Positions 20,672 to 21,535 of a stretch of 64,000 nt of DNA are shown here, one piece after another. Position numbers and translations under genes: made by a program. The stretch's first letter is position 1. Each line of letters begins with the position of its first letter. The stretch is from Acidobacteriota bacterium (GTDB lineage: Bacteria; Acidobacteriota; Terriglobia; Terriglobales; Acidobacteriaceae): NCBI GenBank assembly GCA_046735175.1, contig JBKPSP010000027.1, positions 220 through 64,219 of the forward strand, given 5' to 3'. The notes below the pieces were generated by a model that searched no databases, was not told the DNA's origin, and saw only the letters and a program-made list of their open reading frames with translations.

Positions 20672-21535
20672 ATGACGGCAGCTGCGGTCCCGGTTCCGAG
20701 CGGTGGTGTCCTGGTAGCCAGCGCTAACGCCCACCTTCACGGTGATGTCTTAAGCCAGTTCCAACTCGGTCGCGGGCCGATTTGCATCGCGAGCGGCGGG
20801 GCCGAAGCTCTGGCAAAGCTGGACAGCGGCAACTGGCAGACGCTCATTCTCGATCGCCATCTTCCCGATCTGGATGCGGAAGAGTTGAGAGGGATCACCG
20901 AGCGGCAGTATCCCGGAATCCGGGTCATGCTGCTTGATCCAGCATCCGCTGAACCACAAAATCGCGGATTGGTGCGGACCCAAACGCCGACTCGGAGCAC
21001 AAGTGCAGCCAACTCCGGGCCTGTCCCCGGCATGGTAGGCGAGAGCAGGCCCATGCGGGAGATGTACCGGATGGTGCGGCTGGTTGCGCCGCGCAATACG
21101 ACAGTGCTCGTGACCGGGCCAACCGGCAGCGGCAAAGAGTTGGTGGCTCGCGCCCTGCATCGTTTAAGTGGCCGGGCGAGCGCGGGATTCGCGGTGCTCA
21201 ATTGCGCGGCCATCCCGGACACACTGATCGAATCCGAATTGTTCGGCCTCTTGCCGAGCACCGCCGACGACAGTCCCCTGCTGCAGTGCCTGCGCTCGGA
21301 GATGCGCGACATTCTCGCCCGGGCCATCGGCGAACTGCCAGAAAAGGAGCGGCAGGTACTGGCTCTTTACTACTTCGAGGAGTTAACCATGAAAGAAGTA
21401 GGCATGGTGCTGGGCGTGGGCGAGTCACGAGTTTCGCAGATTCATTCCATGGCGGTGGTGCGGCTGCGAGCGCGAATGGCGGAACTGACGGCGGCCCACG
21501 GTAAAGCGGCAAAGAAGGCGGCGGGGGCAGGGTGA
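20672..21535 (+). CDS. In-frame chimera: degenerate receiver, the first ~70 residues of a sigma54-interaction AAA+ domain (ends at ESELFG), and FliA/sigma28 region 4
   Basis: [41 protein letters not shown]...[16 protein letters not shown] matches NtrC-type activators up to the residue before the GAFTGA segment. From nt 21248 the sequence switches to [46 protein letters not shown], a sigma70 region 4 of FliA type. Probably non-functional. Confidence 0.75.
   Translation: [287 protein letters not shown]

Follow-up and report, generated by a model that had tools for sequence, protein, structure and literature searches.

An in-frame chimera of two flagellar regulators marks a recent cluster deletion at an apparently recurrent breakpoint in an acidobacterial lineage

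How does a bacterium come to carry an intact gene that begins as one flagellar regulator and ends as another, in a neighbourhood emptied of flagellar core genes? The question is raised by an open reading frame (ORF) at positions 20672-21535, plus strand, of a 64,000-nucleotide stretch of contig JBKPSP010000027.1 from a Terriglobales bacterium (the window, hereafter). A first-pass annotation made from the letters alone had read this ORF as a degenerate receiver followed by the start of an NtrC-type AAA+ domain and by sigma region 4 of FliA, and had proposed that one deletion in a flagellar cluster created it, naming a neofunctionalised regulator and an assembly chimera as alternatives. We find that a flagellar-cluster deletion left this ORF behind as a true in-frame chimera, that this event was recent in the window lineage and, judging from sequence phylogenies, that a fusion in the same register arose at least twice. 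Flagellar loss by deletion and pseudogene scars are already well known; what is unusual is one exact in-frame joint of two flagellar regulators in at least two independent lineages, with reading frames intact and a low ratio of nonsynonymous to synonymous substitution rates (dN/dS).

The 287-amino-acid ORF is present as the first-pass annotation described it. Its parts are listed here with the proportions of nonsynonymous and synonymous differences (pN and pS) and the AlphaFold confidence (predicted local distance difference test, pLDDT).

20672-21535, plus strand: chimeric ORF, comprising a receiver-like domain, a linker, a truncated AAA+ piece, and the FliA linker with sigma region 4; full-length homologs P0001-P0009.
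20705-20935, plus strand: degenerate receiver-like domain (aa 12-88) from an orphan FleQ/FlgR-like activator; folded in the AlphaFold model; pN 0.011-0.03 among fused alleles.
20939-21031, plus strand: hypervariable Q-linker (~aa 90-120), with indels in the alignment; pN 0.29-0.39 against pS of ~0.5, nearly neutral; pLDDT <50.
21032-21247, plus strand: N-terminal 72 residues of a sigma-54 AAA+ domain (PF00158), Walker A present, last residues ...ESELFG; pN 0.017-0.04; pLDDT <50.
21248-21250, plus strand: junction codon x (CTC, Leu) of the ELFG-x-LP register, the codon that fliA of the intact relative L001 also has there.
21248-21535, plus strand: FliA-derived part (region 3-4 linker, sigma region 4, C-terminal tail), with Sigma70_r4 at 21323-21472; pLDDT 81-87.

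Profile matches bear out this domain reading and divide the protein at one point. The Sigma54_activat profile (Pfam PF00158) covers aa 121-193 with its positions 1-73 of 168 (E = 3.5e-21), and the NCBIfam activator models NtrC, NifA, LuxO and FlbD all end at aa 192-193; the FliA_WhiG model (NCBIfam TIGR02479) takes over at aa 194-269 with its positions 148-223 of 224, at 88.8 bits where the cut-off is 189.6, and Sigma70_r4 (Pfam PF04545) is matched from position 1 to 50 of 50 at aa 218-267 (E = 9e-17), so that region 4 is complete. Structures divide in the same way: LuxO, ZraR, NtrC1 and FleQ entries of the PDB align only as far as ~aa 193, and FliA and WhiG entries match the C-half. The FliA-derived part is 98% identical in amino acids to the intact FliA P0111, over the last 95 residues of the latter. 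Walker A (GPTGSGKE) is present at aa 149-156, but the window protein lacks the GAFTGA loop, ELFG running straight into FliA LLPS where intact relatives read ELFGY.RGAFTGA, and, with the profile match ending at 73 of 168, it also lacks Walker B, sensors I and II, the arginine fingers and the AAA lid (PF25601, matched in P0011, P0013 and P0016). Sigma regions 2 and 3 return no PF04542 or PF04539 match in the window protein, the FliA portion upstream of ...DLCE having been deleted. The first-pass annotation had already named most of these losses.

The N-terminal domain gives no Pfam receiver match (Response_reg, PF00072) in the window protein and weak or faint ones in P0016 and P0008. Its first beta strand ends in VLVAS, not in the acidic pair DD, and LILD(61)R supplies an aspartate; degeneration has gone just as far in the intact parent. 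AlphaFold nevertheless models aa 12-88 as alternating beta strands and alpha helices (pLDDT ~70-83), with sigma region 4 at 81-87. The whole AAA+ stub stays below 50 and the mean is 55.6, from a shallow alignment of nine fused sequences, which makes the low confidence of the stub suggestive at most of a segment that may not fold.

At the DNA level, the match to intact activators ends at 21246-21247, and the match to the intact fliA of L001 begins at 21236. The window codons across the joint are GAA TTG TTC GGC / CTC TTG CCG, whereas L001 fliA reads ...GAG CTC TTG CCG, and this codon-level comparison fixes the junction exactly after nt 21247, where the first-pass annotation had put it; the nucleotides GAATTGTTCGGC and CTCTTGCCG meet there. 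The parent genes share no k-mer at the joint, their longest exact run being 4-5 nt. The window has Leu as residue x of ELFG-x-LP, other fused lineages have Tyr, Phe or His, and intact FliAs mostly have Tyr.

Both ends of the proposed deletion survive intact in relatives. The flagellar cluster of L004, L005 and L086 opens with the orthologous activator, behind which come a histidine kinase, another sigma-54 response regulator, flgB/C, fliE, fliF, fliG, fliH, fliI, fliJ and fliK; these intact activators, 385-393 aa long, have a degenerate receiver, an AAA+ domain and a lid but lack HTH_8. At the other end, L001 represents the chromosomal locus of the window in its intact state (fliQ-fliR-flhB-flhA-fliA-fliM-fliN-...-HU-S49 peptidase-diacylglycerol kinase), with fliA near the cluster end, just before fliM-fliN. 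From 21236 onward, L001 and window DNA are 90-91% identical, uniformly and with no Ns. That uniformity, the lack of Ns and the shared nearest relatives of the N-part and C-core of its fliA bear on whether L001 is itself a chimeric or imported allele, a comparison that is not decisive. Because the activator match stops where the fliA match starts, and because relatives show both intact ends, we read the chimera as a deletion joint; the single deletion between a cluster-end activator and fliA that had been proposed is strongly supported by the synteny of L004, L005, L086 and L001.

The event joined an orphan FleQ/FlgR-type sigma-54 activator (degenerate receiver, AAA+ domain and lid, no DNA-binding domain) to a fliA that lay near the cluster end before fliM-fliN. 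It removed everything between activator codon 192 (...ESELFG) and the fliA region 3-4 linker (...DLCE/LLPS...). Judging by the visible parts of intact clusters, the lost stretch probably began with the histidine kinase and the second activator and extended via flgBC and fliE to fliK, on to fliPQR and flhBA, some 20-25 kb by our estimate. A study covering over 300 strains of Xanthomonas offers a natural precedent: flagellar-cluster deletions of ~33 kb in ~5% of strains, for example Xanthomonas fuscans 4834-R, with aflagellate and flagellate relatives co-occurring (PMC3826837). The likeness lies in large, recurrent deletions, here seen as several independent scars at one locus; unlike the Xanthomonas cases, two regulators are here fused in frame, with the same joint in separate lineages, and the word 'chimeric' does not appear in that study (PMC3826837).

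The first-pass annotation treated the scar as a single event. Its origin by deletion stands, but the joint is not private to the window: the register ELFG-x-LP is common to nine protein clusters, P0001-P0009 (283-318 aa; identity down to 62%), and is carried by seven DNA loci whose nearby synonymous sites differ freely. In these fused loci fliM lies directly downstream, with fliN retained wherever the contig extends that far, and loci of the group called A below that reach upstream retain the methyltransferase gene, and lepA where visible. Metagenome and GTDB contigs scanned in bulk with the fused protein gave no full-length fused locus among the matches listed, where generic activator peptides dominated; they did supply L087 and a set of intact fliA loci. 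When the C-half alone was used to find homologs, only short proteins came back, so that the search provides no unbiased census; it exposed stubs and other chimeras. Among the results listed by a literature search, none described an activator-FliA fusion.

All fused ORFs are intact, and pairwise dN/dS is 0.06-0.15, low in both halves. Synonymous divergence (dS) is 0.26 in the fused pair L166-L172 (dN/dS 0.06), ~0.5 between the window and L166 or L174, ~1.1 between the window and L002, and ~1.5 in the pair that makes up group B (dN/dS 0.07). Along the fused protein, pN is 0.29-0.39 in the Q-linker, 0.017-0.04 in the AAA+ stub and 0.006-0.03 in sigma region 4. The first-pass annotation had held that an architecture conserved under purifying selection in many genomes would point to a genuine protein family rather than a scar. 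On its face this is what the alignments suggest, with the same architecture in diverged genomes at dN/dS well below 1, yet the result is confounded by at least two origins and by an intact nearest relative.

Those origins were traced separately for the two halves. The fused proteins form two groups, A (the window and P0001-7) and B (P0008/9), and were placed in a C-half tree with 50 intact FliAs (300 bootstraps) and in an N-half tree with ~105 other activator-type N-halves (200 bootstraps). Monophyly of A plus B is recovered in 0/300 replicates on the C-half and 0/200 on the N-half. On the C-half group B is monophyletic in 289/300 and group A alone in 0/300, the window and the intact P0111 being sisters in 287/300 and the fused P0007 pairing with the intact P0241; on the N-half group A is sister to the intact activator P0011 in 200/200, and group B lies nearest to the intact activators P0045 (76-79%) and P0032 (69-72%). 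Residue signatures agree. The C-halves of group B carry QFL, AIDEL, AVLRL and an ...AAAH tail, as do the intact P0260, P0258 and P0282, right up to the junction, and those of group A carry QCL, AIGEL, AVVRL and KKAAGA, as do the intact P0111 and P0241. Since each group is nested among its own intact relatives, these trees and signatures indicate at least two origins of the same-register fusion.

Two routes by which one joint might have been shared were considered and rejected. Recent spread of a single fused allele by recombination does not fit, because pS among group A fused alleles is flat over the junction (0.35-0.54, with no dip) and synonymous sites differ at the joint itself. An old transfer of a short junction-adjacent tract between A and B does not fit either: the junction-proximal residues of group B match its own intact relatives.

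In the window lineage the fusion is recent: its nearest relative is intact, its junction codon is that relative's fliA codon, and relaxed selection is not detected. FliM, used as a neutral marker, is 94.7% identical between the window and the intact L001, ~83.5% between the window and the fused L002 and L166, and 65% between the window and group B. Across the fused C-half, fliM and fliN, nonsynonymous and synonymous changes number 21:37 on the window branch and 17:32 on the intact branch (Fisher p = 1), so that nothing points to long neutral decay, and the lack of relaxation by this measure fits recency or continued constraint. Most simply, the sequences suggest that the window allele was made anew from an L001-like locus, a recent instance in a clade that is actively shedding its flagellar cluster.

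What might the product do? With no Walker B, GAFTGA loop or arginine fingers, the chimera is predicted to be unable to hydrolyse ATP or to contact sigma-54, and with no regions 2 or 3 it is predicted to be unable to act as a sigma factor; it should thus be neither an ATPase activator nor a sigma factor. The parts that could still act are the receiver-like domain and the sigma-28 region 4 to which it is tethered. Region 4 of FliA binds the -35 element, the beta flap and FlgM.

The closest known systems each share part of this design. The N-half is orthologous to the orphan activator that heads the flagellar cluster and resembles the flagellar activators without a DNA-binding domain (FlgR of Helicobacter and Campylobacter) or with a degenerate receiver (FleQ and FlrA), its solved relatives being FleQ, FlrA, FlrC, NtrC1, LuxO and ZraR; unlike FlgR/FleQ-type activators, it keeps only 73 of 168 AAA+ positions and has lost GAFTGA, Walker B, sensor, arginine fingers and lid. 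The C-half resembles FliA/sigma-28 (TIGR02479; solved as 1rp3, sigma-28 with FlgM, and in the FliA-containing entry 6pmi) in its complete region 4; unlike FliA, the chimera has no regions 2 and 3, and hence no sigma2 core binding and no -10 recognition. PhyR joins a receiver to a sigma-like domain and serves as an anti-anti-sigma factor by sigma mimicry (PMC4551977, PMC5830050). It and the NarL/FixJ-type regulators, in which a receiver precedes a sigma4/LuxR-type helix-turn-helix (HTH), have an architecture similar to the chimera by analogy only: unlike PhyR, the chimera has no homologous domain order or origin, no evident acidic pocket and no partner anti-sigma gene found nearby, and a 72-residue dead AAA+ piece lies between its two domains.

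The reading we favour, to which we give even weight for and against, is that the chimera is a recent deletion scar at a recurrent breakpoint, probably devoid of catalytic or sigma function. We favour it for the nested intact alleles, the matching junction codon, the invariant motifs that can no longer be used, the surrounding debris and the natural precedent. The product would then most likely be an inert by-product, expressed from the activator promoter that now also stands upstream of fliM-fliN, and the invariant Walker A and motif residues of the AAA+ stub would most simply have been inherited from recently working activators. With two or more origins, and with intact alleles nested within the fused set, low dN/dS may likewise pre-date the fusions.

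Several observations weigh against a scar. Every comparison between two fused alleles, including L166-L172 and the group B pair, gives low dN/dS with ORFs intact, and if the fusion in any such pair was inherited from a common ancestor, selection has maintained the ORF. Purifying selection also holds fliM and fliN in all fused genomes. In clade A the fused clusters number 8 against 2 intact FliA clusters, and no intact activator nested in A was sampled. The same register is seen in at least two, possibly five or more, events, and sequence similarity does not account for it, more than 10,000 register pairs in a partial search space being equal to or better than the observed joint; among the chimeras seen, none is joined at a better-matching 15-mer that both parents encode at IGELP.

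These points lend most to the alternative of a working family in which the receiver-like domain is tethered to FliA region 4: two or more deletions would have created the fusion, and selection would have preserved it, an account that we think somewhat less likely than not. By analogy, such a protein could be an FlgM decoy by PhyR-like sigma mimicry, or an HTH regulator on sigma-28-type -35 elements, and it might work with the co-retained fliM, fliN and the MshEN-like gene that follows them; on this account the intact alleles found within A would have regained the cluster, the two parts of the fused gene having provided the homology arms. It gains from the identical register in nine protein clusters and seven DNA loci with freely differing synonymous sites around it, from convergent origin in A and B with a microhomology too weak to fix the junction, from the surplus of fused clusters in clade A, and from group B, monophyletic with dS of ~1.5 between its members. 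Intact ORFs at dN/dS 0.06-0.15 in both halves over dS of 0.26 to >1, and pN of 0.006-0.04 in the AAA+ fragment and sigma region 4 against 0.29-0.39 in the linker of the same protein, are likewise what a selected family would show; PhyR is a precedent (PMC4551977, PMC5830050), and flgM lies directly after an independent activator-FliA fusion of 422 aa. It is harder to reconcile with a 72-residue AAA+ fragment that has no core strands, no known function and no predicted fold, and in which an invariant Walker A would be pointless. The window allele derives from an L001-like fliA and displays nothing beyond what recency explains, no flgM was found among the small window ORFs tested, orphan FliM and FliN have no known role outside a full motor, and the many differently joined chimeras and outright scars in the clade resemble mutational debris. 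The fuller version of this idea, that loss of the flagellar cluster repeatedly and convergently made one new selected regulator acting with fliM-fliN and the MshEN-like protein, as an FlgM decoy or a binder of sigma-28 promoters, seems to us doubtful.

The stakes differ accordingly between the scar and the selected family. If mutation drives the recurrence, large deletions have a natural hot spot here, one with no obvious basis in the sequence, and low dN/dS across homologs is no proof of function when a rearrangement recurs. If selection drives it, gene loss has clearly given rise to a new regulator; were the regulator reading true, a deletion would have created a gene, and with it a module for sigma mimicry that owes nothing to PhyR.

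Why the breakpoint should recur is a separate matter. ELFGY of the activator and DLCEY of FliA, set in register, match at 8/12 and 12/21 positions, in the top 0.4-1.5% of registers. About 80 nt downstream both parents encode IGELP, in the Walker B region of the activator and in region 4.1 of FliA (window 21314-21328), and its 15-mer ATCGGCGAACTGCCG can be identical in both genes (for example in L086, L001 and L088); IGELP stands 28 codons from ELFGY and 25 from DLCEY. Because both parents encode it, the alignment of intact FleQ-type activators to the chimera runs on spuriously as far as aa 244. We infer a deletion hot spot at which the short ELFGY/DLCEY similarity, perhaps aided by the shared IGELP 15-mer, guides the joint: in a two-anchor annealing intermediate, strong pairing at IGELP and weak pairing at ELFGY/DLCEY would leave a bubble whose resolution to the fliA strand would give exactly the observed product and might cause it to recur. 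Microhomology as the sole cause was rejected on account of the equal or better register pairs and the unused 15-nt IGELP repeat.

Programmed or site-specific excision, much as the skin element interrupts sigK in Bacillus subtilis, would make the flagellar cluster an excisable element that persists elsewhere or as a circle with the reciprocal FliA(N)-activator(C) joint. The precision of the joint, its register shared by independent lineages, the contig starts and stub ORFs that begin exactly at LC[ED]YLP, as if populations were polymorphic there, and the continued selection on fliM and fliN would all suit it. We consider it highly improbable all the same: neither site has a conserved nucleotide core beyond codon needs, the visible parts of the clusters contain no recombinase gene, many other junctions have different endpoints, and the 64-kb window has no flagellar core gene elsewhere. 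An assembler's joining of two unrelated contigs, for which only the general prior that metagenome assemblies can be chimeric speaks, is excluded, as is a chance ORF, because the same architecture recurs in JGI, ENA (MEGAHIT and SPAdes naming styles) and Logan assemblies made by different assemblers from different samples, at 62-100% identity, with no common k-mer between the parents at the joint and with synteny unbroken on both flanks.

The neighbours of the chimeric gene are listed here.

19793-20527, minus strand: methyltransferase, in the conserved left flank of the fused locus (lepA-methyltransferase-fused gene).
21536-21668, plus strand: AT-rich, repetitive spacer separating the fused ORF from fliM and folding into a long imperfect hairpin.
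21669-22637, plus strand: fliM, intact, with a CheY-binding N-terminal motif; 94.7% amino-acid identity to L001; dN/dS 0.11-0.15.
22634-23464, plus strand: fliN (FliY-like, 276 aa), retained and intact.
23470-24315, plus strand: MshEN-like ORF with a cyclic di-GMP (c-di-GMP)-binding motif (NF053729, 38 bits; weak MshEN Pfam match).

Both lepA and the methyltransferase gene lie upstream of the chimera on the opposite strand. Downstream, fliM and fliN come next with no other flagellar genes, as the first-pass annotation had said: tblastn with FlgC, FliE, FliF, FliG, FliI, FliR, FlhB, FlhA and MotA of relatives gave no match in the 64-kb window. The spacer at 21536-21668 contains CAGAAT/TCAGAT-type repeats and a hairpin of -40.3 kcal/mol (z -1.87), is the stretch least conserved against L001 (~74%), and could act as a terminator, an attenuator or an element like a repetitive extragenic palindrome that decides whether transcription from the activator promoter reaches fliM-fliN. 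The MshEN-like ORF always follows fliN in the clade (L001 7285-8022, L002 3959-4561, L087 13981-14934) and outlasts most cluster deletions, which suggests that fliM, fliN and this c-di-GMP receptor form a conserved unit. In the fused relative L002, motA (11432-11834) lies downstream of a holin-like gene; in the window (30761-31041) and in L057 no motA follows that gene and pyruvate dehydrogenase E1-beta is directly next, suggesting a further, separate loss of a motility gene.

The window event is one of many independent erosions of the flagellar cluster in soil Terriglobales. Other scars and in-frame chimeras of the clade are as follows, a slash marking each joint.

L057, 7788-8117: scar at the same chromosomal locus, keeping only the last ~60 fliA codons, adjoining HU.
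L175/L176 (P0010/P0012): scar at the same locus, in which the activator breaks off at codon ~184 (NCAAMPET) and runs into sequence past the MshEN-like ORF.
L087 (GTDB metagenome-assembled genome QIAJ01000143.1, Acidobacteria bacterium gp1 AA132), 9983-13976: scar at the same locus, with an activator of 389 aa and a fliA of 262 aa, both intact, 227 nt apart.
422-aa family (L168-L171): GAFTG/DAQFRIRGA, left partner the orphan activator; flgM directly after; indexed in 47 collection blocks.
P0361: joint after GAFTGALQSR, left partner the orphan activator.
P0411 and P0144: GACDY/LP, left partner a receiver.
P0398: GACDY/AKFRIRGA, left partner a receiver.
P0148, P0386 and P0466: various joints, left partner an OmpR-type regulator.
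P0179: NEF/IPEDTP, left partner a PAS domain.
P0407: /KEEDLCDYVP, left partner the FlhB N-terminus.

L175/L176 match the window as far as 21222 and again from 24375. P0010 and P0012 have their N-terminus and joint in common and different Q-linkers, a mosaic that indicates recombination among lineages. The spacer between activator and fliA in L087 is a remnant of the histidine-kinase N-terminus (..HPLARAFASFTEAASS..), and the locus is a further deletion of structural genes that spared both regulators together with fliM and fliN.

The 422-aa family and P0361 supply second and third activator-FliA junctions, and P0170 (with P0148) and P0140 are also among the in-frame chimeras that retain the FliA C-terminal module; left partners include the receiver of the second activator and the upstream OmpR-type regulator. 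Right-hand breakpoints cluster at fliA LC[ED]YLP, several within a few codons of one another, and at ..Y/AKFRIRGA, and several stub ORFs, as well as contig starts, begin exactly at LC[ED]YLP. Many of the junctions fall at Tyr codons with 3-9 nt of microhomology, the receiver motif GACDY and FliA LCDY both containing Cys-Asp-Tyr.

Automatic annotation calls these proteins sigma factors: JGI lists P0004 and P0008 as 'RNA polymerase sigma factor (sigma-70 family)' and members of the 422-aa family are named FliA, labels that would wrongly suggest motility regulation in genomes without a flagellar core.

Activator pseudogenes occur as well (P0015, with a frameshift, P0036 and P0053). Frameshifts or truncations affect the orphan activators P0015, P0036, P0053 and P0052, lying after ELFGYARG, after ..QRLG or at the C-terminus. 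P0036 lies on the same 165-kb contig as the intact fliA P0250; decay of a regulator therefore also occurs without deletion of the cluster.

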